From NCBI GenBank assembly GCA_051532055.1, contig JAOPTX010000046.1, positions 1-18,967 of the forward strand: 18,967 nucleotides of DNA. Reading direction: 5' to 3'. The translations under genes were made by a program, and so were the position numbers. Shown here one piece after another: positions 1,209 through 18,967 of this stretch (position 1 is its first letter; each line of letters begins with the position of its first letter). Source of the DNA: Fibrobacterales bacterium. Lineage in GTDB: Bacteria > Fibrobacterota > Fibrobacteria > Fibrobacterales > JAOPTW01. Below the pieces are notes generated by a model, which saw only the letters and a program-made list of their open reading frames with translations, was not told where the DNA came from and ran no database searches.

Positions 1209-4200
1209 TTCTGTAGAACATTCGATGTTTAAGCTTATCAAGCTGCTCCCTTACTTTCGTAAGGAGTCAAAATATATGGTTACCGTTTCCATTGGAATCA
1301 ATATATTGATGCTTGCAATGCCCATAGCATTGATGCAGGTGTATGATCGTATTATTCCAAATAATTCTATGAGTACCTTGTGGTGGCTTATGATTGGGGT
1401 GGTGACGGCTGTTGTGATCGAGGCAGTGATGCGTATTGTAAGAAATATGATCGGTAACTGGTTGTCGGCGGGGTATGAACATGAGCTTAGTACACGGGCG
1501 GTGAATTCACTGGTAGATATGTCTCATGAAGAGTTTGATGAGGTGGGCCCGGGTGTGCACCTCGAACGATTAAATTCTGTTAAAGTCTTGCGTTCCTACT
1601 TCTCGGGTCAACTCTTTCAGGTGCTCGTTGATCTTCCTTTTGTGTTCTTTTTTATCGGTATTCAAATAATGTTGGGCGGGCTTCTTGTGCTCTATACATT
1701 GTTGTTGGTCGGGCTGTTTTTGGGGCTCGTTTTCTATGCTGCTCGCAAATACGAGATGTATATAAAATTGTATAAGGATATTAATAACCGGCATTTCAAC
1801 TATATTGTAGAAACTATTGGGGGAGTGCATGCTGTAAAATCGATGTCGATGGAAGAGCAGATGTTGCGACGGTATGAAAGTATTCAAGAGAGTTTAACGG
1901 CAATTGAATTAAAAAAGAATTTTTGGAGTAATTTGCCAAAAAATGTTTCTCCAGTCTTGTCGAATATGAACTTGTTGGGGGTGATTTCTTTTGGTGCAGT
2001 TATGGTACTAAAGGGTGAGTTAACTCTTGGGGTGATGACTGCTTGTACTATGGTTGCTACTAGGATTCTTCAGCCAGTAGTACAGGTTGCCTACTTTTGG
2101 ATGAAGAAATCAGAAGCTGAGATAGCGTATGAACAGTATTTACAGCTCTTCTCGAAAGATGAATTTGAGCCTGATGAAGAAATCCCCTTGGTGAATGATA
2201 TTGAGGGGAAAATTACTATTCAAGGTCTTTCAATATTTCAAAATAACCCAGACTATACCTATAGTGGGGAGATAGAAGCCGGGGAGTGTATCTGTATTAT
2301 TGGACGTAACTCGGGGCCTACAACGCAGTTAGTTAAATCACTCTGTGGTATTTTAGAAGTTGATAAAAATACGGTGGTCATAGACGAGTATGACCTCTCT
2401 TACTGGCGGCATAGACATTTTAATGGGCGTATTGAGTATTTGAGTCGAAATGGAAAAATATTTAGAGGGACTATTCTTGATAATATTACCATGTTTTGTC
2501 CTGAAAATTATCTCATTGCACAAGATACCGCTGCACTGGTTGAGCTTGATCAAATGGTTGCAGATCTTCCACTCGGCTACGAAACACCGGTAGATCCCGC
2601 CTCGAACCTAACCTTGCCCCATGGGCTTATCCAGCGTATTTGTATTGCCCGGGCCCTAGTGGTCCGACCACGGATTCTTGTGGTTGATCGAACCATCCAG
2701 GCACTTGACTCTGGTTCGGGTAGAATTCTTATAGATGTCATCCAAAAATTACAAGGGTCATGCACAGTGATTGTTGCATCTGAGACAGTTCCGGTGGGGT
2801 TACATCCTTCAAAGGTGTTGAGCTGTACGGGTGATAGCCTTATTGAGTATAAGTGTGATGCCGGAGAGTTTACTGATGGGACCAATCAAGGTAAAGTGCG
2901 ACAGAAACTGTCACGAGAAGAGCTGCTCAGTGGTGATGTATGGATTCGTTGGATGATGCAGACCGCCACCCGATTTGAAGATATTGAACCAATCCTTCAA
3001 GAGACATCCATTGAGCTTATCGATCATGATCACCGTAAAATAGCACAGTATGCTATTGAGATGAATCTTCTTGTCGGGGAGATTTCCACTACTGTAAATA
3101 AAGGGCTTATTGAGAAACAAAAAATGCTTCTTGAAAACTTTTATGAATTTACACGGGGTCACTTTACGCGTGAAGAGGAGTTTATCGAACGTATGAATCT
3201 CGATGGACTCGATAAACAGAAGAAAGAGCATAGGGAAATACTCACCACTTTTAGTGAAATTATTGAAGACTTCCGTCAGGGACGTTCAAAAATTACGCAT
3301 TCCCTGAAGCTCTCACTTATGGATTGGGTTATTTCTCATATTAATAACCTTGATTACGAGACATTTCGATTACATACTATTATTCCCTTTATTCGAAAGT
3401 TAAAGACTTGGAAAGAGATGTCGTATTTTATCTATTCGACAGGGATTCCCTTTGTTGATACAGACCATGAACGGCTGACTCGATCACTCATCGAACTTGC
3501 ATGTACTATTGGGTCAGAAATGAGACAAAAGGCAAATGTAGAGGTTGAGGATCAGTTTGATCAGTTGTATACGTTGGCTCAAGAAATATTGGATCGTGAA
3601 GAAGCATTTCTCAATACCTATTCGATTGATGTGAATGGTATACATAGAAAGAAACATGAAGAGTTTTTATCGCTTATACAGGAGTGTAAAGAGGGGTACC
3701 AAGAGGGTGAACTTAATAGAGATGGGGTCTATGCGCTGCTTCTTGGAGAGTGGATAGATCATAGTAATGGAAGAGATATGGTGGACTTTTCTATACCACA
3801 TCTGCTTCCCATTGTTCTTTCGGATGCTTCAAAAGAGAGCGACCTCACGTGGATGCTGAGAAAAACAGGTATTGCAGAGATCGATACTCAGCATCTTGAT
3901 GTGATCACTGCCGTGATGAAGACTACCACATTGGATAGCAGTACAATGGATCCTGGTACCCTAGATACAACCCTCAGCGGAATTCTGGCCTTGGTGAAAA
4001 AACACTTTAGCTATGAAGAGAAGTACATGGAATCTATTGGTGAAAGTAGTTTGAAATCACATAAAGAAGAACATCGACATATACTGAGCAGTATTGAAGA
4101 GTATCTCGATAACGTACGAAAAGATCGTATCAAATTTTCCGATCGTTTTAGATTGCGTCTCCTTGATTGGTGGGTTAATCATACCAATGGTACCGACTAC

Positions 4201-4236
4201 CAGACTTTTATTCTTAATCGTGTTGAGGGGGAATAA
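1198..4236 (+). CDS. T1SS ABC transporter subunit (TMD + degenerate NBD) fused to three C-terminal hemerythrin domains
   Basis: PrtD/HlyB-like TMD (INILMLAMPIALMQVYDRII; DLPF; GELTLGVM). NBD with altered motifs (GRNSGPTT, LPHGLIQR, ILVVDR). From about 3001 there are three repeats with the hemerythrin H..HxxxEE..HxxxH..HxxxxD pattern. Start may be 1198 or 1225. Confidence 0.88.
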   Translation: MALNSVEHSMFKLIKLLPYFRKESKYMVTVSIGINILMLAMPIALMQVYDRIIPNNSMSTLWWLMIGVVTAVVIEAVMRIVRNMIGNWLSAGYEHELSTRAVNSLVDMSHEEFDEVGPGVHLERLNSVKVLRSYFSGQLFQVLVDLPFVFFFIGIQIMLGGLLVLYTLLLVGLFLGLVFYAARKYEMYIKLYKDINNRHFNYIVETIGGVHAVKSMSMEEQMLRRYESIQESLTAIELKKNFWSNLPKNVSPVLSNMNLLGVISFGAVMVLKGELTLGVMTACTMVATRILQPVVQVAYFWMKKSEAEIAYEQYLQLFSKDEFEPDEEIPLVNDIEGKITIQGLSIFQNNPDYTYSGEIEAGECICIIGRNSGPTTQLVKSLCGILEVDKNTVVIDEYDLSYWRHRHFNGRIEYLSRNGKIFRGTILDNITMFCPENYLIAQDTAALVELDQMVADLPLGYETPVDPASNLTLPHGLIQRICIARALVVRPRILVVDRTIQALDSGSGRILIDVIQKLQGSCTVIVASETVPVGLHPSKVLSCTGDSLIEYKCDAGEFTDGTNQGKVRQKLSREELLSGDVWIRWMMQTATRFEDIEPILQETSIELIDHDHRKIAQYAIEMNLLVGEISTTVNKGLIEKQKMLLENFYEFTRGHFTREEEFIERMNLDGLDKQKKEHREILTTFSEIIEDFRQGRSKITHSLKLSLMDWVISHINNLDYETFRLHTIIPFIRKLKTWKEMSYFIYSTGIPFVDTDHERLTRSLIELACTIGSEMRQKANVEVEDQFDQLYTLAQEILDREEAFLNTYSIDVNGIHRKKHEEFLSLIQECKEGYQEGELNRDGVYALLLGEWIDHSNGRDMVDFSIPHLLPIVLSDASKESDLTWMLRKTGIAEIDTQHLDVITAVMKTTTLDSSTMDPGTLDTTLSGILALVKKHFSYEEKYMESIGESSLKSHKEEHRHILSSIEEYLDNVRKDRIKFSDRFRLRLLDWWVNHTNGTDYQTFILNRVEGE

Positions 4237-6311
4237 TGAAAGGGTTCGAGCAGGATATACTGGTAAATGAGGCTGCACTATCACAATGCCTTTTGCCATT
4301 TTTAGATGCGCTTGGGTGGGTAGGTAAAGAGAAAACTATACTCGAAGCGCGTCCACATCTCGTCTCTGACTTTGATGTGATTGGATTCTTGAATACTATG
4401 GCGAACTTAGGGTATGAGACCCATGTGCTCAAACGTCAACTCGATAACTTGAGTGATCAACTTTTTCCTCTTATTCACATAGAGTCAAAAGGAAAGCCAC
4501 GGGTGATTCTGAGACGCGAAGATAATGGGATCTTGGTGTATGATGGAGAAGAAGAGAGTTACGAAGTTGTACCTTACATTGATGGTGGTCTCTTTTTACT
4601 CGTACATAAGACGAGTGGGTTACATCGTAAAGTATTTGAACCACAAAAGAATTGGTTTTATCATGTGGGGATGCGTTTTAAGAGTATCGGGTTTGTCGTA
4701 CTCTTTTTATCCTTGCTCTTAGTGCTCCTTGCGTTCTGTATACCCATTATCGTTATGGGGGTTTATGATGTCCTTCTCACGGGTGATTCGGTAGACAGTC
4801 CTATTCTCTTGGGAGTTGGAATTGCGATATTTATTTTGTCAGAGGCGGCTATCAGACTTCTTCGTTATTTTATCATGAACTATGCGGGGTCTCGACTGGG
4901 TAATATTGTCAATAATCAAGTAATGAGGCGAATCTTATACTTACCACCATCCTACACCGAAACCTCATCGGTAGGATCTCAAGTGTCACGTATTCGTGAT
5001 TTTGGTACGGTAAAAGAGTTTATAGAAGGGAATGGAAGCGTTGCAATGATCGAAGCACCTTTTTATATGCTTCTTATTGTTGCCCTTGTATTGCTTGCGG
5101 GTAATCTTGCCTATATACCAGCAATTACTGCGTGTCTTTTTATTTTAATTGGAGTGGTTCTCTCGCCGTTTGTAAAACAGATTAATGAAGAGTCAGCTTC
5201 AAATTCAATAGCAAAACAAGAGTATACTATTGACTTGATTAATAACTTTCACGACATAAAACAGGTGGGGCAGCATGGGCTTTGGAAAAAGCGGTTTCGC
5301 GATTTTTCAGCAGAGGCTTCTTTTTCAAACTATAAAACGGCACAAATAAATGGCGTAATAACGAACCTCTCTCAAATGCTTATAACTATAGCGGGCGCGT
5401 TAACTGTTGGGTTTGGGGCCTATAAAGTTATGAATAATACTCTCACACCAGGGGCACTTGTAGCGGCACTTATTATCGTTTGGCGTATATTGGGCCCCGT
5501 AAAGGCTGCGTTTTCTGTGGGTACTCAGTCTACTCGGTTGCGCAGAAGTATCACTCAGTTAAATCGATTGATGTCCATTAAGATCGAAAAGAATGTACAG
5601 CAAGAGGCGGTGCTCTCACGTTCACTCCGCGGGTCAATTTTTTTTAATAATGTTTCGTTTCGCTATAATAACGAGGCACACCCGGCGTTACTTGGGGTGA
5701 ACCTTGCTATTAAAAAGGGTGAATGTATGGCGTTTACGGGGCATGATGGGTCAGGTAAAAGTTCTATATTTAAGTTGATACTGGGTATGTATAAACCACA
5801 ATCGGGTCGTGTACTCATTGACTCTTTTAATGTACAACAATTAGATCCGATACAGGTGCGTCACTCAATAGGGTACTCTCCAAAAAATGATACCATGTTC
5901 TATGGTACTATTGAACAAAATCTTAAATTGGTTACCCCCGAAGCAACAGAAGATGATATGATTGAAGCGGCAAAGCTGTCTGGATTGTGGAGCGCCATGG
6001 AACAGGATGCCATTACTTTTGGCACCCGTATTGGTGATAACCTTTCTCATGGCGTACGTCCTTCTTATAATAAACTCATAAATTTAACACGTATGTTTCT
6101 CAAGAAAAGCCCTATATTGCTCCTTGATGAACCTGAACAACTTCTCCAAAATGATGAAGTAGAATTTTTAGCAAAAAATATTGCAAAACTCAGGGGAGTG
6201 AAAACAATTCTCCTTATTACCAAGAACCCCATACTATTAAAGGTAGCTCAATCGGTTACGGAATTTGAACGGGGTCGAGTAGTGTCAAACAGTGTGAACA
6301 AACAGGAATAG
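4236..6311 (+). CDS. T1SS ABC transporter subunit (peptidase C39-like N-terminal domain, TMD, NBD)
   Basis: TAATG coupling to the previous gene. N-terminal LSQCLLPFLDALGW C39-like region, TMD, Walker A GHDGSGKS and Walker B ILLLDEP. Signature motif is degenerate. Confidence 0.9.
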   Translation: MKGFEQDILVNEAALSQCLLPFLDALGWVGKEKTILEARPHLVSDFDVIGFLNTMANLGYETHVLKRQLDNLSDQLFPLIHIESKGKPRVILRREDNGILVYDGEEESYEVVPYIDGGLFLLVHKTSGLHRKVFEPQKNWFYHVGMRFKSIGFVVLFLSLLLVLLAFCIPIIVMGVYDVLLTGDSVDSPILLGVGIAIFILSEAAIRLLRYFIMNYAGSRLGNIVNNQVMRRILYLPPSYTETSSVGSQVSRIRDFGTVKEFIEGNGSVAMIEAPFYMLLIVALVLLAGNLAYIPAITACLFILIGVVLSPFVKQINEESASNSIAKQEYTIDLINNFHDIKQVGQHGLWKKRFRDFSAEASFSNYKTAQINGVITNLSQMLITIAGALTVGFGAYKVMNNTLTPGALVAALIIVWRILGPVKAAFSVGTQSTRLRRSITQLNRLMSIKIEKNVQQEAVLSRSLRGSIFFNNVSFRYNNEAHPALLGVNLAIKKGECMAFTGHDGSGKSSIFKLILGMYKPQSGRVLIDSFNVQQLDPIQVRHSIGYSPKNDTMFYGTIEQNLKLVTPEATEDDMIEAAKLSGLWSAMEQDAITFGTRIGDNLSHGVRPSYNKLINLTRMFLKKSPILLLDEPEQLLQNDEVEFLAKNIAKLRGVKTILLITKNPILLKVAQSVTEFERGRVVSNSVNKQE

Positions 6312-6315
6312 TGTG

Positions 6316-7662
6316 ATGAATAATAATCAAAAACTCAATGAAGAGATTGCACGCATTAGAACAGAGAGTAAATTCCTTGCTCGGTCGGTACTTCTCGAAG
6401 AGACCGGAAGTAAACGGTATGTACATATTACTATTTTGGTCTGTAGTTTGTTACTTGTGTCGTTTATAGTGTGGTCTGCCGTGATGGAGGTTGATGAGGT
6501 TGCTATTGCAGAAGGGTCAATAGTACCCAAAGGTGAACTCATTAAAATTCAACATCTATTGGGGGGTAAAGTTTCACGGATACTGGTACGGGAGGGGGAG
6601 TATGTTGAAAAAGATGCGATTGTTATAGAAATTGACCCAGAAAATTCACAATTACTCCTTGGTGAATTAAATGTTGAGTATCAGGAGTTGAAAGCCGCTG
6701 CACTATGGCTTCGTGCACTGATTGATGAAACTAAACCAACTTTTACTCTTGGGGTAGGTGAGTATAGTGAGATTTATAAAGATCAAATGGAACTCTATAC
6801 TCGAAATAAAGCTCAAGATAAATCTGGAGAAAATATTATTGTGCAACAGATTGAACAAGTGAAACTCGAAATAGCGGAATTGAAAAAGAAACAGATAAAG
6901 CTTAAAAAAGATGTTGGTCTTCTTACTAAAGAACATAGAATTCGGAAGAAATTAGTTTCGAAAGGATTGAATTCAAAATTGAGTATCATAACCCTCGAAC
7001 GTGATCTCAATGACGCACAAGGTGAGTTAGCAGAATCGAGACCAAAATTAAAGCGACTCCGTGTACGGCTTAAAGAGTTGCGCACACGGCGTATAGAGTA
7101 TTCGGGGCTGCGGAAAAAACAATATGCCGAAGAATTGACTAAAACAAAAAGCGCACTTTTGATGCTGCAACAAAAACAAGTGTACCTGAGTAGTAATCTT
7201 GATTATTTAAAAATTCGATCCACCGCAAGTGGGTATGTTCACGGTCTTCAGGTAAATGCATCGGGAGAGGTGGTCAATCCTGGTGAGACGCTTTTTCAGA
7301 TTGTACCGGCAGACAGAATTCTGGAGGCGCATTTGAAAATTGCGGCAGCTGACATTGGACACCTTAAAACAGGGCAGTCAGTACTTATTAAATTTAAAAC
7401 ATTCAACTATCGTCGCTATGGTGGGGTCCATGGTGTGTTATCAGAAATATCCAATTCAGCCTTTCTTGATGAAAATGGAAACTCTTTTTATAGGGGTATC
7501 GCACGTTTGAGTGATGACGCAGACAAGTTATCGTTACAGGATAAACAAATTATTCCAGGAATGACCATTACAGCAGATATTAAAACAGGTACTAAAACTG
7601 TTCTAGAATATTTGCTTCGTCCACTCTATAGCTCTACCGAAACAGCATTTTCTGAACGGTAA
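6316..7662 (+). CDS. HlyD-family T1SS membrane fusion protein
   Basis: Single N-terminal TM helix, IQHLLGGKVSRILVREGEYV lipoyl-like half, long coiled coil, C-terminal IIPGMTITADIKTGTKTVLEYLLRP...FSER. AGGA SD precedes ATG 6316 (GTG 6313 is an alternative). Confidence 0.93.
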   Translation: MNNNQKLNEEIARIRTESKFLARSVLLEETGSKRYVHITILVCSLLLVSFIVWSAVMEVDEVAIAEGSIVPKGELIKIQHLLGGKVSRILVREGEYVEKDAIVIEIDPENSQLLLGELNVEYQELKAAALWLRALIDETKPTFTLGVGEYSEIYKDQMELYTRNKAQDKSGENIIVQQIEQVKLEIAELKKKQIKLKKDVGLLTKEHRIRKKLVSKGLNSKLSIITLERDLNDAQGELAESRPKLKRLRVRLKELRTRRIEYSGLRKKQYAEELTKTKSALLMLQQKQVYLSSNLDYLKIRSTASGYVHGLQVNASGEVVNPGETLFQIVPADRILEAHLKIAAADIGHLKTGQSVLIKFKTFNYRRYGGVHGVLSEISNSAFLDENGNSFYRGIARLSDDADKLSLQDKQIIPGMTITADIKTGTKTVLEYLLRPLYSSTETAFSER

Positions 7663-7668
7663 TAGCAG

Positions 7669-9252
7669 TTAAGGCAAGAGACTGAAATCTTCTTGATTGC
7701 GCCATTTTCCATTTTCACCTTCGGTAATTGGGTCATCAGAAATAATGTTACCCCTATGGCCGTTTCCAGATGCATCTTCAATTTGGTCGGGTTTTGTTGA
7801 GTCATACTTAAATTCGTAACTGAGTACCAGACGTCGAGTTTCTTCAATGTGTGCTGTCGTTTGGAAACGGCTTGCAGCAATTTGATCTGCAGTACGAGCA
7901 GTATTCCAGATGCGTATATTATCCATCTGTCCGCGAAAGCCACTATCAATATTTTCGGTGCTGGTACCAATATAATTTACGGTACGAATGGTATCGATAG
8001 GAAGAGCGTCGAGCCCCCCTTCAGTCGATGGTTGCGGTTCACCGTTTACGTAGAATGTTATAAGCCCTGTTGGTGTTACGGTAACCGCCAGGTGGTTCCA
8101 TTCATCTAATTTAAAGGCGTCATTCATATGTGCATCGGTCAAGTCATTATTGGTTATTCCTCTCTCGGTATTAGACACTGCATATTTGAGTAAGTTGTTT
8201 CCGTTATCGTGTACTGCTCCAAAAATAATCATGTGTTTTCGGGTTGGGCCATTTGAGAGATGAATCATATGAGTGGTTGTTTGAATTTCATCCCATAAAA
8301 CCCAGAGCTCCATGGTGATGCCCTCAGAAGACCAATTGTAATCAATAGGATTTTGAATGCTCACGTAGTCGGGGTCGCTGTGTATGTGAAAAGTCTTTGT
8401 TGAATCGATTGTGCTTTGACTCGATGAACCAAGGTTCATCGTAGAAGAAGAACTTTGCAGGACGACCTCAGAAGAAGAGAGCATTGTACTACTCGATGAA
8501 ATAATTATTTCTGTTGAAGATGAGCCTGGGGTAATAGGGATGCTACTCGATGATGAGTGAGCCTCGTAGAGAATATCGATGGGAATTATCAAGTCGCTTT
8601 CGAAGGTAAGAGTTTCATTGGGAATAATAGTCATACTGTCTAGTGTGAGCTTGGTACTTTTGAGTGAGAATGGCTGGGCCCAGTATACTGAGGTATAGAC
8701 TCCGGGGGGGACGTGGGTAAATAGTACCCTAAAGGTTGCACTATCGGTATTGGTGTAGGCTCTTTCACCTTGTGCAACCATTGTGGTGTTTTCAATATAG
8801 AGCTTACCGAGTTCTGGTGATCGCCCCAGCGAAGAAAGAGGGAGAGTTATGACCACTGCCCCTGTAGCTTTGAGGGTATCAGTGAGGTTAAGCTGTGCGT
8901 CCGGAGTATAGGTGATTTCTTTTTTATAGAGTCCGGTTGACTTTGTCTCGTTAATGGTTTGAAGGCTATAAGTCCCTGAGGTTATATTCGTAAATTGATA
9001 GCGCCCCATATCATCGGTTTCTGTTTGTTGTTTGGTAACAAGGGTACTATCGTGAATTGGGTTATATGAATTAGGAAAAATCACTACTGCAGCATAGGAT
9101 TCGGGTTCACCTTCTGGGGTGTAGAGCGTTCCTGCAATGTAGCCTCCTGTTTCAACATCGGAAGCGCCTGCAAGTTGGTTGTCCGGATTTGAGCAACTGG
9201 TGAGCACCCAAAATAGTAAGAGTGATAGTAGATACATTGATTGATTATACAT
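7669..9252 (-). CDS. Lipoprotein with carboxypeptidase-regulatory-like/prealbumin-fold domain, Ser-rich linker and C-terminal LamG/ConA-like domain
   Basis: Signal peptide with lipobox LTSC after the ATG at 9252 (or 9237). AGASDVETGG..IAGTL..TDDMGRYQF; poly-Ser linker; ITMELWV..WNHLAVT..FYVNG..FRGQMDNIRIWN LamG motifs. The ORF-track start at 9453 overlaps the upstream gene and is unlikely. Confidence 0.8.
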   Translation of the reverse strand: MYNQSMYLLSLLLFWVLTSCSNPDNQLAGASDVETGGYIAGTLYTPEGEPESYAAVVIFPNSYNPIHDSTLVTKQQTETDDMGRYQFTNITSGTYSLQTINETKSTGLYKKEITYTPDAQLNLTDTLKATGAVVITLPLSSLGRSPELGKLYIENTTMVAQGERAYTNTDSATFRVLFTHVPPGVYTSVYWAQPFSLKSTKLTLDSMTIIPNETLTFESDLIIPIDILYEAHSSSSSIPITPGSSSTEIIISSSSTMLSSSEVVLQSSSSTMNLGSSSQSTIDSTKTFHIHSDPDYVSIQNPIDYNWSSEGITMELWVLWDEIQTTTHMIHLSNGPTRKHMIIFGAVHDNGNNLLKYAVSNTERGITNNDLTDAHMNDAFKLDEWNHLAVTVTPTGLITFYVNGEPQPSTEGGLDALPIDTIRTVNYIGTSTENIDSGFRGQMDNIRIWNTARTADQIAASRFQTTAHIEETRRLVLSYEFKYDSTKPDQIEDASGNGHRGNIISDDPITEGENGKWRNQEDFSLLP

Positions 9253-9260
9253 ACGTGCGC

Positions 9261-10091
9261 CTAGCCTTCCAAAGTATTGGAGAGGGGGAAAAAATTGATA
9301 TTGAGCATATACACTTGTTCGGGATTCTGATCGTTGACGGCGAGTTTCATAAGGCGAGATCGGCAGTCGCGAATGATGTCGATATAGCTCTTGTAGCTTT
9401 CTTTTGAAAATGAGAGTGTGGTTGCAGAGGAGAGTCGTTTCTTGGGTTTCCAACGGTCAAATGCGGTAATTGCCATTTGTAACATCTCTACTTGATAGTT
9501 AATCACTTGGTGCGCCCCTAAATTACTGGTTTGCTTGGCATTGAGCAGGGGTTCTGTTTGTTGGTATGTGCCCTCTATTCGTTTTAAAAAGCCGAGCTTT
9601 ATCAGAAGTACAACAGATGCTTTTGCTTGCTTCGCACTAATAGCAGGTTTTAGAAATTTTCCGAGGAGCCCATAATCTTCTTTAAAGTCTAAAAGGGTGA
9701 CTGCCTCGCGTATTGCACTGTGATACCATGCAGAGAAGTACTCATACTGCTCTTCGGAGATGGTTTTTACATGGCGCATTTTTTGTTTTTCAATCATCTT
9801 TTCAAAAAAAACATTTTGGGCTTTAACGGATTTAGCTTGATTAAAGGATACTAGGTTTTCAAAATATTCGGCTTCATCGTCATCAAGTCCAAAGGCGATA
9901 CAGGTTTTAAGAATGGTCTCTTTCGTAAGGTTTCTTTTTCCTTTAATTACTTGGGGATAAAAAGATGATGAGTTGATATCTGCTTTTTGTGCATAGTAAC
10001 GGTATGAGAAGGTGCGGTTTTGTGCCGACTTCATCGCTTGAAGATCACTTAAATATTTTCGGTAGTCCGAATAGTCATATACTGAAATCAT
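9261..10091 (-). CDS. TIGR02147 family protein (N-terminal HTH, DUF4423-like C-terminus), putative regulator
   Basis: Typical family pattern YDYSDYRKYL..FSYRYYAQKA..SSSF..VIKGKRNLT..YFENLVSFNQAK..YFSAWYHSAIRE..VYMLNINFFPLS; 276 aa. Confidence 0.9.
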   Translation of the reverse strand: MISVYDYSDYRKYLSDLQAMKSAQNRTFSYRYYAQKADINSSSFYPQVIKGKRNLTKETILKTCIAFGLDDDEAEYFENLVSFNQAKSVKAQNVFFEKMIEKQKMRHVKTISEEQYEYFSAWYHSAIREAVTLLDFKEDYGLLGKFLKPAISAKQAKASVVLLIKLGFLKRIEGTYQQTEPLLNAKQTSNLGAHQVINYQVEMLQMAITAFDRWKPKKRLSSATTLSFSKESYKSYIDIIRDCRSRLMKLAVNDQNPEQVYMLNINFFPLSNTLEG

Positions 10092-10263
10092 GTGTGTCTC
10101 GCTTATATCGCTCTTACTGGTATATGGTGGATAATAATATTAATCCCTTAATAATATACTCAGTTTTTGGTCTAAAAGATCATTCTAGGGCGTTTTTTAT
10201 CGAAGTGGTAGTTTTTTGTGTAATCACCTTGCTCGGGTCCTTGAATGCATTCAAAACAGAGTT

Positions 10264-10301
10264 AAAAAAATAGATAGGAGCGCTAACTCTCTATCTATTT
10301 T
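10264..10301 (-). terminator. Intrinsic terminator-like hairpin downstream of the small ORF (possibly bidirectional)
   Basis: AAAATAGATAG-GAG cgctaa CTC-t-CTATCTATTTT (10267-10301). The A7 at 10264-10270 gives a U-tract on the minus strand. A second small IR, AGTACTAA/TTAGTACT, lies at 10303-10324. Confidence 0.65.
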
Positions 10302-10346
10302 GAGTACTAATGGGGGTTAGTACTATGAAAGTCTTATGTAGGATGG

Positions 10347-10445
10347 TTATACGGCAGTAAGGAACCCTGCATAGGATACTACAAGTGTTACCAGAGCTAC
10401 AAATGAGTATTGTGCGAGGTCGATAAGTATTTCGTGATATTTCAT
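10347..10445 (-). CDS. Small 32-aa hydrophobic membrane peptide (MKYHEILIDLAQYSFVALVTLVVSYAGFLTAV)
   Basis: Manually translated; below the ORF-track cutoff. SD AAAAGGGAG 7 nt before ATG, a hydrophobic C-terminal stretch of about 20 aa, and a downstream terminator hairpin. Confidence 0.6.
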   Translation of the reverse strand: MKYHEILIDLAQYSFVALVTLVVSYAGFLTAV

Positions 10446-10588
10446 GGTGTTACTCCCTTTTGTCACAGGTTTGGTGTTTTAGCGTCTTTGTGTATGTGTA
10501 CCTGTGTGTACTTGTTCCCGTTCTCTTACCTTAAGTTAAATTCAGAAAGGAGTGAGTGAACAAAAATTGAATATTTTTAGTTCATTTG

Positions 10589-10670
10589 TGGTTACAGATG
10601 TAATCAGTAAACTTATGTAAACAGTCAAAAAGGCTATTTTAAACAAATTTGGTCAAAAACATGTAATCAC
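10589..10670. promoter_or_regulatory. Cluster of TGTAAYCA-like boxes, candidate transcription factor operator
   Basis: Palindrome TGGTTACA-GA-TGTAATCA (10589-10606), TGTAAACA (10616-10623), TGTAATCAC (10662-10670). Another TGTAATCAC is at 10219-10227. Confidence 0.45.
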
Positions 10671-10731
10671 TTGGGTGGGTGTAGGCGTGTATTTCTGTTA
10701 TGGACAAATGACAGTAAGTGTCGTACACTGA

Positions 10732-11958
10732 ATGAAATCTATCTTACTAGAGTTATCTGTGTCTGAGTTAGAACATGGCCATATGAAATACACCGGTATC
10801 AACTCACTCCGATTGGTAGTAATGATTTTTGTCGTTATTTTTACTTTCGACCATGAGTATCTGTTATATAAATCTATCTGTATTGGTAATCTTGTCTTTT
10901 CCGCTCTTTGGTTGATTGCCGAAGAGTTTCGCTATATTGATGTATCTAAATATCCTCGACTCTCTTGGGTAGCAACGTCGTCAGATTTGATAATGGTTGC
11001 CTTGGTATTTTTTATGACGGGAACGGTTAACTCATTTATAAATATTGGCTTTCTGTTAGTTACTGCCGTCTGTTGTCTTAATTTAAAAACGGGTCAGGGC
11101 CTTTTTTCTGCAATTGTATCGATACTCTTCTATGTTTCAATATCTCTAATGGTCCTACTTGGCTTATTTCCAGACATCAATATACTCGGTGCAGAGAATG
11201 GAGTGACACTTCAGGCTTTCTTGATCTCTTCGGTATTGTTTACGGCAGCGAATATTGCTGTGTACCTCTTGGTGACTGAATTGATGAAACGAAATAAAAA
11301 TCTATATCTTGAAGTAGAAGATCAGAAACATAAAAATGAAGAGTTGCTTCTTAATATACTTCCCTATAGTACGGTTAAAGAGCTACAACTCTATGGTCGC
11401 TCAATCCCCCGTAAAGTAAATCAGGCAACAATCTTCTTTTCTGACTTTGTCAATTTTACCAATATATCAAAAGGAATGCTTGCCGAAGACCTGGTAGATA
11501 AACTCGACGGCTTTTTTACGTTTTTTGATAAAACCTTAGAGCAATATCAGATTGAAAAATTAAAGACGATCGGTGATGGATATATGGCGGTATCGGGGGT
11601 GTTGGGTGACTATAAACAGCAGGCAGTAAATATGTGTAATGCGGCATTGGATATTCTTGAATATATGAAGATTCATGAACTGGATGATAAAAATGTGTGG
11701 AACGTACGTATTGGGATTAATACCGGTCAAGTGATTGCAGGCATTATAGGGAAATCAAAATTTTCGTACGATGTATGGGGTCAGGCGGTTAATTTGGCAG
11801 CGAGGCTCGAGAGTGCGAGTGAATCAGGCAAGATCAATATTTCTCAAGAGACTTATGCACTGACAAAAGATGTTTTTGAATATGAGTATCGTGGTAAAAT
11901 CAGTGTTAAGGGTATTGAGGGGGTTGATATGTATTATTTGGTTGGGAGGAAGGAGTAA
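10732..11958 (+). CDS. Membrane-bound class III adenylate/guanylate cyclase (probably adenylate cyclase)
   Basis: Multiple N-terminal TM helices; EELLLNILP; IFFSDFVNFT; EKLKTIGDGYM; RIGINTG..GIIG..KFSYDVWGQAVNLAARLES. The K and D substrate-specifying residues indicate ATP. Confidence 0.93.
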   Translation: MKSILLELSVSELEHGHMKYTGINSLRLVVMIFVVIFTFDHEYLLYKSICIGNLVFSALWLIAEEFRYIDVSKYPRLSWVATSSDLIMVALVFFMTGTVNSFINIGFLLVTAVCCLNLKTGQGLFSAIVSILFYVSISLMVLLGLFPDINILGAENGVTLQAFLISSVLFTAANIAVYLLVTELMKRNKNLYLEVEDQKHKNEELLLNILPYSTVKELQLYGRSIPRKVNQATIFFSDFVNFTNISKGMLAEDLVDKLDGFFTFFDKTLEQYQIEKLKTIGDGYMAVSGVLGDYKQQAVNMCNAALDILEYMKIHELDDKNVWNVRIGINTGQVIAGIIGKSKFSYDVWGQAVNLAARLESASESGKINISQETYALTKDVFEYEYRGKISVKGIEGVDMYYLVGRKE

Positions 11959-12262
11959 GGTGCAAGGTGCAGGACGCGCACCTCACTAATTGAGTAATAA
12001 TCTTTTAGATTACTCTAATGTGTTCTAAAACTGGAGCATATTTCTGGATGTGAATGGATTAGAGTTTTTCTGGTATATAATAAAGGGCACTTTTAGGCCG
12101 TTTAAGGTGCTTTTAGAGGGTTTTCAAAAAGAAGAACGGTTTGAGTACAACTTCGGTGCGATTTTAGAACGGTATCTGGTGCGCCTCTGTGTTGGGAGTG
12201 TGTCCTCTTTTCTCAATAAGGTATCCTTGTGTTATTAAACAACAACACTTTAAGGACTCTCT

Positions 12263-14017
<1,755 letters not shown>

Positions 14018-14086
14018 TAATCCGGTATTTATCTACTTGATTCAATCAGTGTAGGTTTTGCGTGACTGGTTACTCAGCAAAGAAAA

Positions 14087-14123
14087 TATGAAAAGGACCT
14101 GTACTGTGCAGGTTCTTTTCATA
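14087..14123. terminator. Hairpin between convergent FISUMP and integrase genes, probable (bidirectional) terminator
   Basis: TATGAAAAGGACCTGTAC / GTGCAGGTTCTTTTCATA inverted repeat. Both mismatches are G:U pairs on the + strand. Confidence 0.65.
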
Positions 14124-14353
14124 GTGGAGTGCGTTGTGTCAGAGCGGTATCTAGACAGCTTTATTTGTGTTGCTTATTGATTTATGGATTAACTATAAGC
14201 TTTATTGCGAATAAGTAGTGAGGGCCATATTTATGTTGTTGTAGATGAGGGACACTACTATGAGATGGCTAAAGAAGATGAAAGCGTCAGACTAACAGGC
14301 AAAAGTGCCAAACGAACATACAATAGTAGGTGCTGAGCTCATTTGAGAAATAA

Positions 14354-15448
14354 CTACAGTAGAGAGGGAAGGTGACTTAACGACTCCTGAGCTACCTTTG
14401 TATAGCGGGTGGTAGTGTTTATATCACTATGACCCATCAGTTTTTGAATATAACGCAGATCAACCCCTTTTTCGAGAAGATGTGTCGCAAAGCTATGACG
14501 GAAGGTGTGAGGAGAAACAGTCTTGGTAATGGACGTTTTAGATGTGGCCTTTTTTACGATGGCGGCGATAGTTCTCGGAGAGAGCCCGCCACCTCGTTCA
14601 CTGGTAAATAAGTGATCACCGGGTTCCCGCTCACTGATCATTGAATTAATGTCACTACAGAGGCTAGGAGGGATTATGACAATTCGATCCTTTTGCCCTT
14701 TAGCGTTTTTGAGATGAATACTTCGTATTTGAAGATCTAAATCCTTGATCAGCAGGTTGCACACCTCTGAAACCCTCATACCTGTGGCATACATCAGGGA
14801 TATGGCCATATGGTGTTTGGTGTTTTTGATTTTACTTAAGATCTCTTGTACTTCTTGAGGATTGAGAACAACCGGCAGATGCTTAGTTCGACGAGGACGA
14901 TGGTGCAGTACGAAATCAAATGGTCTCTTGAGAGAGTGAATATAGAGAACTTTTAACGCTGAGATTGTGATGTTGATGGTAGAGCCTTTGTAGCGTTTTT
15001 CTTCTATTAAGTAGTGTAGGAATGCTTCGATTTTTTCGTTATCAATCTTATTAAAGGAGTAGCCCAAATAAGTGTCGAGCATTTGTAGATTACTGATATA
15101 GTTTGTGATGGTGCATTGACTATAATTTTGGCGAGTAAGTGCTTTGGTGACTGCTTTGAAATGCTTTTGGTTGATTGATTGTTCTTGTACTTCGACCGTC
15201 GGGTATATGTTATTAAAGAAGTATAAAATGATATACCGCACGTACTTTGCATCAGAATCTTTTAATTGTTCTCGAAGCTCAATATAAGTGTTCACCACAT
15301 TGATTGTGAGTTCATCTTGAGTCTCTGACCATTTAAGGAATTGCTCAATAAGTTTTGTATGATATTTAATAACGGTTTCAGTTTTATTTTGAGTTTTTAG
15401 GTATTGCTCTAGTGCGGTAAGGTAGTCTGTCATGGTGTATAGTTCCAT
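14354..15448 (-). CDS. Tyrosine recombinase (integron-like integrase lacking the IntI-specific insertion)
   Basis: Complete catalytic set: GMRVSE (R), AKGQKDR (K), HTFRHSFATHLLE (H-x-x-R), LMGHS (H), TTRYT (Y). Also has KHLPVVL and SAM-like N-terminal domain(s). Divergent from the cassette array. Confidence 0.92.
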   Translation of the reverse strand: MELYTMTDYLTALEQYLKTQNKTETVIKYHTKLIEQFLKWSETQDELTINVVNTYIELREQLKDSDAKYVRYIILYFFNNIYPTVEVQEQSINQKHFKAVTKALTRQNYSQCTITNYISNLQMLDTYLGYSFNKIDNEKIEAFLHYLIEEKRYKGSTINITISALKVLYIHSLKRPFDFVLHHRPRRTKHLPVVLNPQEVQEILSKIKNTKHHMAISLMYATGMRVSEVCNLLIKDLDLQIRSIHLKNAKGQKDRIVIIPPSLCSDINSMISEREPGDHLFTSERGGGLSPRTIAAIVKKATSKTSITKTVSPHTFRHSFATHLLEKGVDLRYIQKLMGHSDINTTTRYTKVAQESLSHLPSLL

Positions 15449-15505
15449 TGAAATATAGTTAGACGCAACTCAGCATTCTTATGGGACAGTTATTTTTAAA
15501 TAGTT

Positions 15506-15636
15506 CCTACATCTCCGGTTTTTATAGAGAAGTAGGCAATGTCTGACATACTTTAGCGGAATATCTGGAGAAGTACGCAATACCTACTTCTTGGTGTTGT
15601 GGTGGAGAGTTGGCAGTATTGCGTACTCTTTTAGTT
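15506..15636 (+). promoter_or_regulatory. attI-like region with repeated candidate recombinase/regulator binding sites ending at the GTT crossover core
   Basis: Direct repeat GAGAAGTA(G/C)GCAAT at 15527-15540 and 15568-15581. Inverted copies CCTACATCTC (15506-15515) and CCTACTTCT (15583-15591). Perfect 12-bp IR AGTACGCAATAC/GTATTGCGTACT (15572-15583/15616-15627). GTT at 15634. Confidence 0.55.
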
Positions 15637-15751
15637 GAGGCTAATTACAAAGGGCAGGAAACATCGCTCAGTATAATTAAAATGTCACATTATATGATAT
15701 CAATGTTTATTACTATTATTATACATATAAGAAAAACACCGAGGGTATATT

Positions 15752-16711
15752 GTGAAGGCAGTATTTTCATATCCAACAAAATTTTGGATTGAGAACACAA
15801 GTGAAAATAAATTTGATCTTAATTCTCAATTTGCTATAAATGATATCCAGTGTTCGTTGACCTTAAAAACAAATCAGGTTTCCGATATTAAGAATGAAGA
15901 TGGTTCAATTAAATATTTTTATTGTAATTGTTATTTGTTACAAATGGAATTGCAAAAAGAAGGTGTCATATGGGAAGAATTGTCCAAAGAAAAGGTATAT
16001 TCGATAGTATATAATATGATATCTGAGGTCATAAAATATTTGAGATCAATAGGCTTAACCAAGCACATTAGGGTGCCTGTTTATAATAAAAAATATTCTG
16101 AATATTATTTAGATAAATGGGAGTTTAATTATTCAGCAGATGAGCAATTGATACCTTTAATTTCTAAATCAGGGATTATTCCTATAGGTCTTCACACTGA
16201 TACTCCAAATACTGAGTTTAATGGCGAACTAAAAGTAAATCAATGGGATGCTATAGACAATGCGCTGAAAAATCAAGACAAACCACCAATTCAAAATGAA
16301 TTTATAGTTCGTGCCTTGGAGTATTTAGAAAAAGAAGATTTAAGATCTAGCATCATAGAGGCAACTATAGCACTTGAAATTGTAGTTTCAAGTTATCTCA
16401 CTAAGCAGCTAGAAAGTAGGGAATTTGCTAATGAAAAGATTAAAAATTTCTTAAAGCCTACTCTGGATCTGCATTCAAGAGTCAGTGTGCTAATTAGCTT
16501 GTTTGCACCCAAAATTGTTCTTGATCATTTGAATTTTACTAATGTTTTGACTTGTATTAAATGGCGGAATAATATTATCCATAAAACAGGAGATTTACCT
16601 GAGGGAATAAATACTGAGGAATCAAAGGATAAAATATTTTCAATGATCTCAATGGTATTTTATTTGGATACTGCTATTGAAATGAAAACAGAAACTAAAC
16701 TAGTGGAATGA
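15752..16711 (+). CDS. HEPN-motif protein (ApeA/HEPN-like putative RNase)
   Basis: GTG start with GAGGG SD. C-terminal helical domain with SIIEATIALE and the RxxxxH motif WRNNIIH. Confidence 0.6.
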   Translation: MKAVFSYPTKFWIENTSENKFDLNSQFAINDIQCSLTLKTNQVSDIKNEDGSIKYFYCNCYLLQMELQKEGVIWEELSKEKVYSIVYNMISEVIKYLRSIGLTKHIRVPVYNKKYSEYYLDKWEFNYSADEQLIPLISKSGIIPIGLHTDTPNTEFNGELKVNQWDAIDNALKNQDKPPIQNEFIVRALEYLEKEDLRSSIIEATIALEIVVSSYLTKQLESREFANEKIKNFLKPTLDLHSRVSVLISLFAPKIVLDHLNFTNVLTCIKWRNNIIHKTGDLPEGINTEESKDKIFSMISMVFYLDTAIEMKTETKLVE

Positions 16712-17637
16712 ACCAAATGATGGAAGAAGAAAGAGAAAGGACTGGAGTCCAAGGTTGGAAACAGTTTTTGTCAAATAAAAAAGTTTTATTGGATCATTTT
16801 GACAGAGCAAAAGAAAAAGATCAAATTCATAAGGTACAAACATATCGAGGTGTGGTAGCTGAAGAAGAATTTAGGAAATGGTTATCAGAATTTCTTCCCA
16901 AAAAATACGCTGTTACATCTGGATATATTATATCCCAAAATGTATCTGAAGATATAAAGGCTCCACATTATGATGTAATTATTTACGATTATCTAAATTC
17001 TCCTATTTTGTGGTGTGATGATCACTCAGGGGCATCAAGTAATGGTAAATCGAGGGCTATTCCAGCCGAACATGTTATGGCTGTATTAGAAGTAAAATCA
17101 AAACTTAATTCAACAACTGTTAAAGATTCGATTAATCATTTATCTGAATTGAGCTCCTTATGCCCAACCTCGGATCAGCAAACAGATAGGTATAACAGTT
17201 ATTTACCAAGCCATTTCTTTTGTGGAATCATTTGTTATGAGTTGATTAAGCAGGATGAGTATAGCATTGCAATTTTTGAAAATATGCTTAGGGACGAAAA
17301 AGAGGTGCCCGATGGTTTTTTTGGAGTATTAATTTTAAGAGGAGAAGGGCTGCCAATAAATTGTACTGGTAAAATTGACCTTTTAGTAGGAACAACTAAT
17401 ATAAAGTGTTCAATAAAAAAAGATGAGATTTCACTTCTTAGTAAACATTCTGCAAAATTAAGTAATTCAGTAAAATACAAAAACAAGTTTATGTGTGCTA
17501 TGTTAGATTGGAATGAAGCTGTATTTTCTCAATTTGCTTTTGATTTGATTGCAAGATTGACAGGTGATTATAGGCCTGGCTATGCTTCAAGTATGCATGC
17601 GATGAACTGGGTGAAGCCTAAAAATAAAATTGATTAA
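16708..17637 (+). CDS. DUF6602-like PD-(D/E)XK nuclease-fold protein
   Basis: ATGA overlap with the upstream gene. GVVAEEEFRKWLSEFLPKKYAVTSGYII..YDVIIYD..IPAEHVMAVLEVKSKL is the DUF6602-type E..D..EVK pattern. Confidence 0.72.
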   Translation: MNQMMEEERERTGVQGWKQFLSNKKVLLDHFDRAKEKDQIHKVQTYRGVVAEEEFRKWLSEFLPKKYAVTSGYIISQNVSEDIKAPHYDVIIYDYLNSPILWCDDHSGASSNGKSRAIPAEHVMAVLEVKSKLNSTTVKDSINHLSELSSLCPTSDQQTDRYNSYLPSHFFCGIICYELIKQDEYSIAIFENMLRDEKEVPDGFFGVLILRGEGLPINCTGKIDLLVGTTNIKCSIKKDEISLLSKHSAKLSNSVKYKNKFMCAMLDWNEAVFSQFAFDLIARLTGDYRPGYASSMHAMNWVKPKNKID

Positions 17638-17709
17638 CTCCTACCAGAGTGAAGCAATTCATAAATATATTTAAAATATTAAAAGACTATTTAGAGATAG
17701 AATGCGATA

Positions 17710-17797
17710 GCCCTTTGTAACTAGCCTCAACAGCGTGAGCATGCAATTATTCCCCTAAAGATGGGAATAACTGCATACTGGCACACAAACGTTGTCA
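17710..17797 (+). other. attC-like recombination site 1
   Basis: AAC (17729-17731) ... GTT (17791-17793) enclosing the imperfect hairpin GCGTG-AGC-ATGCAATTATTCCC [CTAAAGAT] GGGAATAACTGCAT-ACT-gg-CACAC, with two extrahelical bases and an unpaired spacer. Confidence 0.75.
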
Positions 17798-17912
17798 CAA
17801 ATTATTTGGAGTAGAGAGGCTTTACTTTTGTAGATACTTTTTAAAGAAAAGTAATATGAGGAATTGGTTTTCTATATTTTTAAAATTATGATATAACAAA
17901 TGTAGGGATTTC

Positions 17913-18842
17913 GTGATTTGTAATAAATTGATTCTAATGTTAATTGCTCTAATCTGTATATGCGCCTCCATTTCATTTTCTCAAGAAGCAATTGATTCTG
18001 AATACTATAATATCGATTCAATCATTAAAAGGCAAAATCTAACCCTTACAAGTATTAAGGCAAAAACTCCTACTATTAAATGCTCAAAAAAAGAAGAGAG
18101 TAACTTTTGGATTACTGGATTAATCTTGCCATTTTTGGTTACTGTAGGAGCTTCTATGACTATTCTAATTATAAATAAAATTAATACCACCAGAGCAGAA
18201 ATTCAAAAGAAATTATATACTTTGAACTATATGATGAATGCTTGCGACAAAATTCTACACGCTGAATTAATTGTATTAAATCATACTATAAATCCTCATT
18301 TAGATGCTACACAACAGATATTGAAAGGTAATTCTGAATTGAAACATACAATGTTTGTATCTGGTGAGTTTAATATATTAACAGATAAGCCTATTAGCTT
18401 TTCTGGTATAACAGAAGAAAACAAAACACTTGTTGGGTATGACAAAATTGGTGTAATTCATTCTTATGATGTTTTAATTCACAATTTAACGAATGATAAT
18501 GATAGGATTGCATTGAATAAATTTGTTGAAAATTGTTTATCTAGTGAATTAGCCTTTGATCAATATTTACCTGAAGTACAAAAAGATTTATTGAATCAAT
18601 ATTGGGATCACCTTGATAGAATAAAACATAATTCTGAACGAAACATATTTTTTATACACTATATAATCACACGGTTTGTAATGGATTATTTGAAGGACAA
18701 ACAATTTAAGTCATATAAAAAAGATGAAATTTATAATACTATTCATCAAACTAAATTATTAGCTAACCAATACAAAGATCTTATACCAGATGCTGATTTC
18801 ATGGAAAAAGTGAAAAACGGTGGTATTCAAAATGCTATTTAA
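17913..18842 (+). CDS. Hypothetical membrane protein (signal-peptide-like N-terminus, second TM helix, soluble helical C-terminal domain)
   Basis: 309-aa ORF with GTG start and AGGGA SD. Hydrophobic segments LILMLIALICICASISFS and FWITGLILPFLVTVGASMTILII. No family recognised. Confidence 0.7.
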   Translation: MICNKLILMLIALICICASISFSQEAIDSEYYNIDSIIKRQNLTLTSIKAKTPTIKCSKKEESNFWITGLILPFLVTVGASMTILIINKINTTRAEIQKKLYTLNYMMNACDKILHAELIVLNHTINPHLDATQQILKGNSELKHTMFVSGEFNILTDKPISFSGITEENKTLVGYDKIGVIHSYDVLIHNLTNDNDRIALNKFVENCLSSELAFDQYLPEVQKDLLNQYWDHLDRIKHNSERNIFFIHYIITRFVMDYLKDKQFKSYKKDEIYNTIHQTKLLANQYKDLIPDADFMEKVKNGGIQNAI

Positions 18843-18860
18843 TCCAAAGCATGTAGCGTA

Positions 18861-18967
18861 ACTCCAAATAACTCGTGACAACAGCCGAAGCACGCAAGCT
18901 TTTTTCTATGCACTGAAGTGCAAAAAGCCTGCGTACGTTCGTCGGACTTCACCCGAAAAGTCAAGCA
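18861..18967 (+). other. attC-like recombination site 2 (probably incomplete)
   Basis: AAC at 18880-18882, then stem ACGCAAGCTTTT..TGCACT-GA-AGTGCA-AAAAGCCTGCGT. Shares CAACAGCnnnAGCAYGCAA and CTGCRTAC with attC-like site 1. Confidence 0.65.

Follow-up and report, generated by a model that had tools for sequence, protein, structure and literature searches.

Split cassette-end repeats that probably extend the recombination-site stem of integron-type cassettes in a Fibrobacterales bacterium

Organization of the Cassette Array

The stretch of DNA analysed here, referred to as the window, comprises 18,967 nucleotides and is the entire contig C46 (JAOPTX010000046.1) of the 5.17-Mb, 181-contig metagenome-assembled genome GCA_051532055.1 of a Fibrobacterales bacterium. 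Its right-hand part carries a short array of integron-type cassettes, each of which is enclosed by a long inverted repeat, and these repeats are the subject of this analysis. The array is preceded by a gene for a tyrosine recombinase on the minus strand (14354-15448; Pfam Phage_integrase, 2.3e-43), whereas all features to its right are read on the plus strand. The attI region contains two direct repeats (15516-15540 and 15557-15581), which were detected by a repeat search and carry an L-box-like motif in direct orientation, and the attI simple site (15618-15637), which according to sequence reading and repeat search consists of the L-box ATTGCGTACT, a 6-nt spacer ending in TA and a GTTG core (15634-15637). 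Cassette 1 starts at this core with its 5' arm GTTGAGGCTAATTACAAAGGGC (15634-15655; repeat and partner searches), continues with two overlapping open reading frames (ORFs) of 319 and 309 amino acids (15752-17637; ORF and family search) and terminates in a 3' arm (17710-17731), which has the R'' core CAAC at its end and is complementary to 15634-15655 at 21 of 22 positions. The classical part of attC 1 covers 67 nt from CAAC to GTTG (17728-17794; nhmmer E 1.5e-06, pattern match), in the order R'', unpaired spacer, L'', loop, L', spacer and R'. Cassette 2 consists of the 5' arm GTTGTCACAAATTATTTGGAGT (17791-17812; repeat search), a 309-aa ORF without family match (17913-18842; ORF and family search) and a 3' arm ending in CAAC (18861-18882), which is complementary to 17791-17812 at 20/22 positions. 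It is followed by attC 2 (18879-18947; nhmmer E 3.7e-17, aligned with 13 other copies), which belongs to the commonest type in the genome and is interrupted just before its GTTG by an IS110-family insertion sequence (IS) present in multiple copies, of which the window contains the initial 20 nt (18948-18967), recognized by the same 20-22 nt at other contig ends.

The 22-nt inverted repeats of both cassettes had been described in an earlier note, which was made from the letters of the window, and a sequence check as well as an independent repeat search recovered them at the same positions. In the latter, the arms of cassette 1 lie inside a longer pair (15618-15655/17710-17747) with a 22-nt core matching at 21/22 positions, and the pair of cassette 2 (17791-17812/18861-18882; 22 nt) reaches 91%. 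All three mismatches set an A of the 5' arm against a C of the 3' arm, and both cassettes have one at position 11, as had been noticed. A scan for inverted repeats anchored at GTT...AAC (score of at least 12) returned exactly these two pairs in 15400-18967 and none in 1-14300, thereby excluding a chance origin of the repeats.

The assignment of the array to integron-type cassettes, likewise made in the earlier note, is supported; attC palindromes, attI and a divergent tyrosine recombinase are all present. An alignment of 14 attC copies shows imperfect palindromes of 67-73 nt, which are composed of CAAC, a 5-nt spacer, L'', loop, L', a 7-nt spacer and GTTG. As in integron attC sites, the bottom strand folds into an R stem, an internal loop corresponding to the unpaired central spacer, and single-base bulges, and it does so better than the top strand: fold energies of -17.5 versus -10.1 kcal/mol and, for attC 1, of -16.8 (z -5.2) versus -13.0 kcal/mol were obtained for the bottom and top strand, respectively. 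Further likenesses to integrons are the co-orientation of the cassettes, which extend from an attI beside a divergent tyrosine recombinase gene in both the window and a sister species, the ..AAC and GTT.. cores, the L boxes, the variable loop, and the origin of the R' half of a site from the 5' end of the same cassette. The recombination site of classical integrons includes no more than 6-7 bases of the cassette 5' end. The arrangement described here differs in that 15-33 nt of R''/R' complementarity, and not the 7 bp of the R box, arise on circularization, and that a T·G wobble occupies position 11. For comparison, a passage of PMC7439510 defines the R box as the 7-base motif RYYYAAC, and a passage of PMC5371416 states that R' may differ from R'' in its four variable bases when it lies in an array.

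Extended Repeats throughout the Genome

With an nhmmer profile and a two-half pattern, 39 attC sites of the CAAC/GTTG type were found on 14 contigs. The best match to each 3' arm was then sought within 7 kb upstream (score of at least 12) by an anchored search that was blind to the attC calls, and a partner is present for 26 of the 39 sites. The corresponding downstream search gave no partner for any of the 39 sites (0/29 for sites followed by 1 kb or more of searchable sequence), and neither did five shuffles per arm (0/39). The 26 partnered cassettes, which are located on contigs C3, C45, C46, C47, C72, C89, C100, C115, C116, C136 and C141, span 292-3852 nt, and their repeats are 15-33 nt long with a median of 23 nt. 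Every partner starts at the G of a GTTG (26/26). Sixteen of these coincide with a previously called R' of an attC or attI; reading the flanks of the other ten by eye places five behind attI-like sites, two behind IS ends where the element interrupts an attC, one behind a divergent attC and two behind attC tails truncated by the contig start. Extended cassette-end repeats are general in this genus, and the question raised in the earlier note, whether further cassettes carry like repeats with covariation and the position-11 wobble, can be answered positively for 26/39 sites.

The 26 arm pairs fall into 14 families. Cassettes of one family share the arms and around 50-90 nt beside them; however, no shared cargo within families was found by blastn of the cassette bodies and no blastp pair was obtained among 49 ORFs, with the exception of a duplicated 292-nt cassette. 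The arms are thus less strictly cassette-specific than the earlier note had them: those of window cassette 1 recur with compensatory changes on cassettes with unrelated cargo on C47 and C115. Since family arms stand beside unrelated cargo, the arms behave like part of a modular site and not like a property of the cargo. Of the letters that the arms had been proposed to share, GTTG is confirmed, but C8 is conserved in only 4/14 arm families; the invariant positions across the 14 families are instead A11 T12 of the 5' arm and A12 C11 of the 3' arm.

The sharing of arms and of the 50-90 nt beside them by unrelated cargo would also be expected if the repeats were a by-product of cassette making, in which a terminal module is copied onto new cargo and the pairing has no role. 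The existence of the 292-nt cassette, which has no ORF, fits this explanation as well. Copying alone, however, would not produce the strand bias of the wobble pairs described below (15:2), and compensatory changes preserve pairing both within and between families, so that an origin as a mere by-product is improbable. The 292-nt cassette contains no ORF of at least 60 aa with an ATG start; it appears to be "empty" and consists of little more than the terminal module. Together with the occurrence of arm families on unrelated cargo, it may be relevant to the formation of cassettes, a problem that is still unsolved.

Inverted repeats that bracket each unit in the vicinity of a tyrosine recombinase gene are also reminiscent of transposon ends or of the sites of invertible, shufflon-like segments. 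A transposon would be expected to have common terminal repeats, its own transposase and target-site duplications, none of which was found: the 14 different arm families provide no common end for one transposase, no protein homologue is common to the 26 cassettes, and no target-site duplication was seen by eye at the two cassettes of the window and attI. Furthermore, the immediate neighbour of each partner is an attC, an attI-like site, an IS end or a contig start. Inversion of segments is opposed by the polarity at position 11, which is the same in 26/26 cassettes, so that no inverted copy is seen in the assembled contigs, and by the orientation of the ORFs, as 37 of the 49 ATG-started ORFs of at least 60 aa run with the array. 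Both the transposon and the shufflon explanation are given hardly any weight.

Two further types of sites were encountered. Five attI-like sites (TTGCnnACnnnnnTA followed by GTTG) head short cassette arrays with no recombinase gene alongside; they are located at C3(-) 125890 (oriented coordinate), C47 65262, C72 19840, C115 2756 and C115 11230. In addition, long attC variants of 139-185 nt exist on C89 (7858-8030 and 10753-10922), C100 (6867-7039), C45 (7744-7914), C47 (67106-67238), C72 (25247-25379) and C33 (2241-2419), and some of their inner stretches look alike by eye.

Covariation and Strand Bias of the Arms

The mismatches between the arms are distributed unequally between the two strands. 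At position 11, an A of the 5' arm faces a C of the 3' arm in 26/26 cassettes, which corresponds to a G:T pair on the bottom strand. Beyond this position, 17 bottom-strand G:T pairs, 2 top-strand G:T pairs, 8 transversions and 6 indels are found. When transitions are counted once per family, 15 bottom-strand G:T pairs stand against 2 on the top strand (binomial p 0.0012). This asymmetry cannot originate from mutational bias. The 3' arm has one extra base just ahead of the invariant pair in three families, which account for 4/26 cassettes.

The two arms also change together. In the ten indel-free families, 145/150 cells (96.7%) at positions 5-19 can pair on the bottom strand, whereas only 54.5% (maximum 64%) do so in a deranged-partner control, and most of these positions show 2-4 different Watson-Crick pair types. 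Within the family that comprises window cassette 1 and its relatives on C47 and C115, both arms are altered together at positions 5 and 13-15. The invariance of A11 T12 and A12 C11 suggests that the sequence is read specifically beyond the 7 bp of the classical R box.

Pairing of the arms could in principle take place in the cassette transcript, where it would form a structure for processing or stability at the RNA level; the arms flank the coding region, and G:U pairs are normal in RNA. The sense transcript, however, has the sequence of the top strand, in which the mismatches are A·C, and the wobble bias on the antisense strand contradicts a sense-strand RNA structure. Furthermore, no Rfam family matches in the array region of the window or in the three array contigs C89, C100 and C45, including their long attC variants. 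A function of the arms in the transcript is therefore very unlikely.

Circle and Array Forms of the Site

To obtain the circle forms, the attC of each cassette was joined in silico to the 5' arm of that cassette, and the product was folded using DNA parameters. This was done for 14 cassettes; three cassettes with an IS-interrupted attC, window cassette 2 among them, were left out of the folding. The circle forms have mean predicted fold energies of -40.6 kcal/mol for the bottom and -32.7 kcal/mol for the top strand, compared to -23.8 and -19.7 kcal/mol, respectively, for the array forms. The bottom strand of the circle is thus predicted to fold into the extended hairpin that the earlier note had proposed, around 17 kcal/mol better than the array form, and it is more stable than the top strand in 14/14 circles. 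Together with the 15:2 bias of the G:T pairs and the A/C mismatch at position 11 in all cassettes, this supports the bottom strand as the one under selection for pairing. In the array, pairing is indeed confined to GTTG/CAAC, as had been assumed: the median R-box score of the array form is 4 (30 sites), although scores of at least 9 are reached at two of the 30 sites.

The boundary of the mobile unit can be deduced from the 292-nt cassette, which is present in two array contexts with different neighbours (C89 8030-8380 and C100 10107-10457; 98.7% identical). Identity starts at ..ACGTTG and ceases right after the next GTTG. These limits place the exchange point in or beside GTTG, and the unit boundary therefore lies at the GTTG core, as the earlier note had it, at a resolution coarser than the G|TT step.

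Taken together, the repeats probably form the outer portion of the R-box stem in a recombination site of the integron type that folds from a single strand. They extend the R''/R' stem, and this stem can form only when the ends of a cassette are joined to each other. Each cassette carries one half of the stem at its 5' end, starting from the GTTG core, and the other half just upstream of attC, ending in CAAC. In the array, the two halves are separated by 0.3-3.9 kb and attC is followed by the 5' arm of a different cassette, which leaves GTTG/CAAC as the only pairing. In an excised circle, the halves become contiguous with attC and the bottom strand can form a hairpin with an R stem of 15-33 bp instead of around 7 bp. 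There is good reason to favour the structural part of this reading, a split stem that abuts the crossover core and adjoins attC only in the circle, and it is held with slightly more confidence than the explanation as a whole, which includes a likely catalyst and a consequence for the direction of recombination.

The conserved layout of the stem is GTTG, five free positions, A/C, and then A11 T12 of the 5' arm opposite A12 C11 of the 3' arm, which places an invariant bottom-strand T·G wobble one helical turn from the crossover. GTTG and the eight bases up to A11 T12 could make up a full Xer-type binding arm of 11-12 bp, similar to the 11-bp arms of Xer sites, and this putative R arm would adjoin an unpaired central region of 5/7 nt and an L arm of similar length. 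A layout of this kind, with two arms of around 11-12 bp and a centre of 5-8 nt, would resemble a dif site. The difference from Xer recombination at dif-type sites is that the site proposed here is a folded single strand, that the halves of its R arm lie kilobases apart, and that there are many such sites with cassettes between them.

The enzyme acting on these sites is probably the Xer-type recombinase that is encoded divergently from the array and in which the insertion of IntI is missing. Without the domain by which IntI grips extrahelical bases, an enzyme of this type might need a complete duplex arm. If the full R arm forms only in the circle, the circle would be a good substrate for insertion at attI, and sites in the array would be poorer substrates for excision. 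Based on the predicted energies, the repeats could thus bias the system towards capture and retention of cassettes over their excision, as the earlier note had proposed, a consequence to which slightly less than even confidence is attached.

The main rival on function turns this consequence around: the arms might pair in the array across 0.3-3.9 kb of single strand, thereby creating an R box at the upstream junction and promoting excision. The single strand could be the lagging-strand template or incoming conjugative or transforming DNA, and the two crossover points would be brought together. Selection on the bottom strand fits this idea, a stem of 15-33 bp is strong enough to hold a kilobase loop, cassettes move or are duplicated as units, and most attC copies share their L boxes, so that a hybrid L box could arise beside the stem. 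The product, however, would be a three-way junction instead of the coaxial R-spacer-L duplex into which an attC folds, and up to 3.9 kb of naked single strand would be required. Pairing in the array is accordingly considered rather unlikely, although less so than an origin of the repeats as a by-product, and the assembly of the stem in the circle is preferred.

The Adjacent Xer-Type Recombinase

The recombinase ORF next to the array encodes 364 aa; the database protein begins five codons later and has 359 aa. It passes the cut-off of the XerA model NF040815 of NCBIfam (230 bits, cut-off 220) and fails that of the integron integrase model TIGR02249 (183.6 bits, cut-off 265), to which it aligns in two stretches that skip profile positions 180-237. 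In line with this, its best solved relatives are archaeal XerA proteins (phmmer: 4a8e, 7.7e-39, and 5hxy, 4.1e-38; Foldseek with the recombinase model: 5hxy, 7.8e-17). Both sequence and fold are thus those of the XerA/XerC/XerD group, and among the Xer enzymes acting at dif-type sites (archaeal XerA, XerC/D, XerH) the protein has its best sequence and fold match. When aligned to Vibrio IntI4 (2a3v), the recombinase has 22 residues where IntI4 has 65, i.e. in the region of the IntI-specific domain, and the additional domain around patch III that characterizes IntI is absent. This absence is one of the differences from integrons, since a passage in the bioRxiv version of the archaeal-integron paper describes the IntI-specific domain as the feature that defines integron integrases in IntegronFinder.

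The AlphaFold model of the recombinase has a mean predicted local distance difference test score (pLDDT) of 87.9. It shows an extra four-helix bundle at the N-terminus (residues 1-78; 15199-15433, minus strand; pLDDT above 90) without Pfam match, which is followed by the core-binding and catalytic domains and which distinguishes the protein from other Xer recombinases. The full-length architecture was recovered in only three other proteins among 5.8 billion searched (55-71% identity); the next relatives are Xer-like proteins of around 270 aa with 38-48% identity. A derivation of the N-terminal bundle from a duplicated core-binding domain was considered but found no support, as BLASTP between the halves gave a non-significant E value of 16 and the idea was based on the helix count alone. 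The genome contains other Xer-like genes on C44 and C35. The place of the recombinase gene beside attI and the array and its rare N-terminal extension argue for a role other than dimer resolution, as far as this can be judged from sequence. A crude repeat scan of 36 loci of distant recombinase relatives, which is insensitive in AT-rich DNA, found comparable cassette repeats in the sister species only.

Canonical IntI and the Identity of the Catalyst

The genome also encodes a canonical IntI (C108 7927-8862, minus strand), which reaches 372.6 bits with TIGR02249 and contains the IntI-specific insertion. A second attC family of around 120 nt with TAAC/GTTA cores is present beside this gene (C108 9827-10365) and on C32, C30, C157, C31, C74 and C130, and, by reading, a GTTA-type junction also adjoins the IntI gene. 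Cassettes of this canonical family regain 7-10 nt of complementarity on circularization (four valid cassettes, while a fifth pair has an uncalled site between its arms), and two plasmid-borne class 1 arrays contain no anchored repeat with a score of at least 12. As both the genome's own canonical integron and the class 1 arrays are devoid of the long repeat, the extension belongs to the CAAC/GTTG family, the attI of which lies beside the Xer-type gene. Two distinct cassette systems hence coexist in this genome and likewise in the sister species.

The main rival on the catalyst is this canonical IntI: the cassettes of the CAAC/GTTG type might be ordinary attC sites served by the IntI of C108, with the Xer-type gene as a bystander or accessory and the arms as a lineage-specific embellishment that stabilizes the fold without being read by the enzyme. 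A TIGR02249-positive IntI is available in this genome and in the sister species, the inner part of the sites has all classical attC elements, and IntI enzymes accept structurally diverse attC sites. This is, however, difficult to reconcile with the invariant A11 T12 and A12 C11 and with the association of the IntI gene with a GTTA-type junction and the other attC family. Moreover, the attI beside the Xer-type gene has an L box corresponding to those of the sites in question, and this holds for both species. Catalysis by IntI is the most credible of the alternatives, but still doubtful.

In the sister species, the order of recombinase, attI and cassettes is the same, and the recombinases are 56% identical. 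Among 296 Fibrobacterota genomes, the attC pattern was found only in this genome (20 matches) and in the sister species (4 matches), and a reversed control pattern had no match in these genomes. Searches of other collections yielded no candidate that held up: 78 single matches in metagenome contigs were attributed to chance, as none was upheld by the attC profile, and neither the 8 matches in viral contigs nor one recombinase relative found there was upheld.

Several observations weigh against the proposed reading. The fold energies are nearest-neighbour predictions for naked DNA. Of the 39 attC sites, 13 have no partner; eight of these have less than 2.5 kb of upstream contig, and the partner of one such site sits on the end of another contig, but five had enough upstream sequence. 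Among these five, three have degenerate cores by reading, and for one a score of 10 was obtained at a called R'. Poor substrates in the array would make excision rare, yet at least one cassette was moved or copied, and neither a circle junction nor a cassette deletion was found at any joint, an uninformative result as it is based on the assembled contigs of one probable source run. Support from outside the genome is thin, as in the sister species the repeat is present at two of three evaluable sites, which are members of a single arm family. What ties the Xer-type enzyme to the sites is adjacency alone, and the canonical IntI of both species might act on them; since the sister species has a canonical IntI too, the two systems are inseparable by presence or absence.

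The most far-reaching version of the proposal would be a second kind of integron without the IntI-specific domain, in which cassettes are captured via hairpin sites by a Xer-type recombinase equipped with an additional helical domain at its N-terminus, and in which the full R arm of 11-12 bp, marked by the fixed T·G wobble, exists only in the circle. This possibility is a tentative one and rather improbable as a whole. If it were true, cassette capture would be intrinsically directional and would coexist with a classical integron in one cell. The ability to capture cassettes would then either have arisen a second time, independently, or be preserved here in an extant form that links Xer/dif with IntI/attC recombination.

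The setting of the balance between excision and insertion is a live question in integron research. A split site with a long covarying stem that exists in the excised form only, as found for 26 cassettes of 14 families, would offer a mutable handle on whether site structure alone can make capture directional. With the Xer-type enzyme as catalyst, a class of cassette platforms would escape the integron finders now in use, and a testable intermediate for a Xer-like origin of integron integrases would be at hand. A literature search, which did not cover subscription journals, returned no account of a cassette-borne extension of the R stem and none of an attC array headed by a Xer-type enzyme without the IntI domain.

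Insertion Sequences, Cargo and Neighbouring Genes

attC 2 does not extend to the right end of the window; from 18948 on, the sequence belongs to the IS110-family element, which is inserted before the expected GTTG. The same 20-22 nt as in 18948-18967 are found at the ends of C72, C141, C122, C153 and C45, and C122 encodes a 434-aa DEDD/IS110 transposase. The other junction of the element, ...GAGAAC|GTTG, is present on C47 (68792) and C136 (111). At several sites the element has thus entered at exactly the same point, namely between the final ..AC of attC and GTTG, and always in the same orientation. Its presence in multiple copies is likely the reason why the contig stops at this point, as assembly breaks at such sites. 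A group II intron had first been suspected at the window end, but proved to be the IS110-family element, and no Rfam family was matched on the small IS-bearing contigs. The insertion behaviour presumably resembles that of the IS1111-attC group; this likeness concerns the IS element in attC 2 and not the cassette-end repeats.

Two joints starting from 17732 in the source-run contigs are accounted for by paralogous arms beside other attC types. In addition, a contig of low depth (15.7 versus 472) from the same run joins 15659 to 17705, i.e. the end of the 5' arm to the start of the 3' arm of cassette 1, which could represent a paralogous site or an arms-only form.

Of the two ORFs of cassette 1, the 319-aa ORF has no family, and the 309-aa ORF encodes a DUF6602 protein, a PD-DExK/NucC-like nuclease. 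The DUF6602 protein matches NucC-type defence effectors in PADLOC (1e-13 to 1e-19). Judging from these matches, the two-gene operon is likely an anti-phage cassette.

To the left of the recombinase gene, positions 3-14017 of the window contain ordinary chromosomal genes. These code for an outer-membrane efflux protein, two ABC transporters, one of which has fused hemerythrin domains, a HlyD-type protein, an adenylate/guanylate cyclase, and Fib_succ_major and DUF4423 proteins, which are typical of the group.

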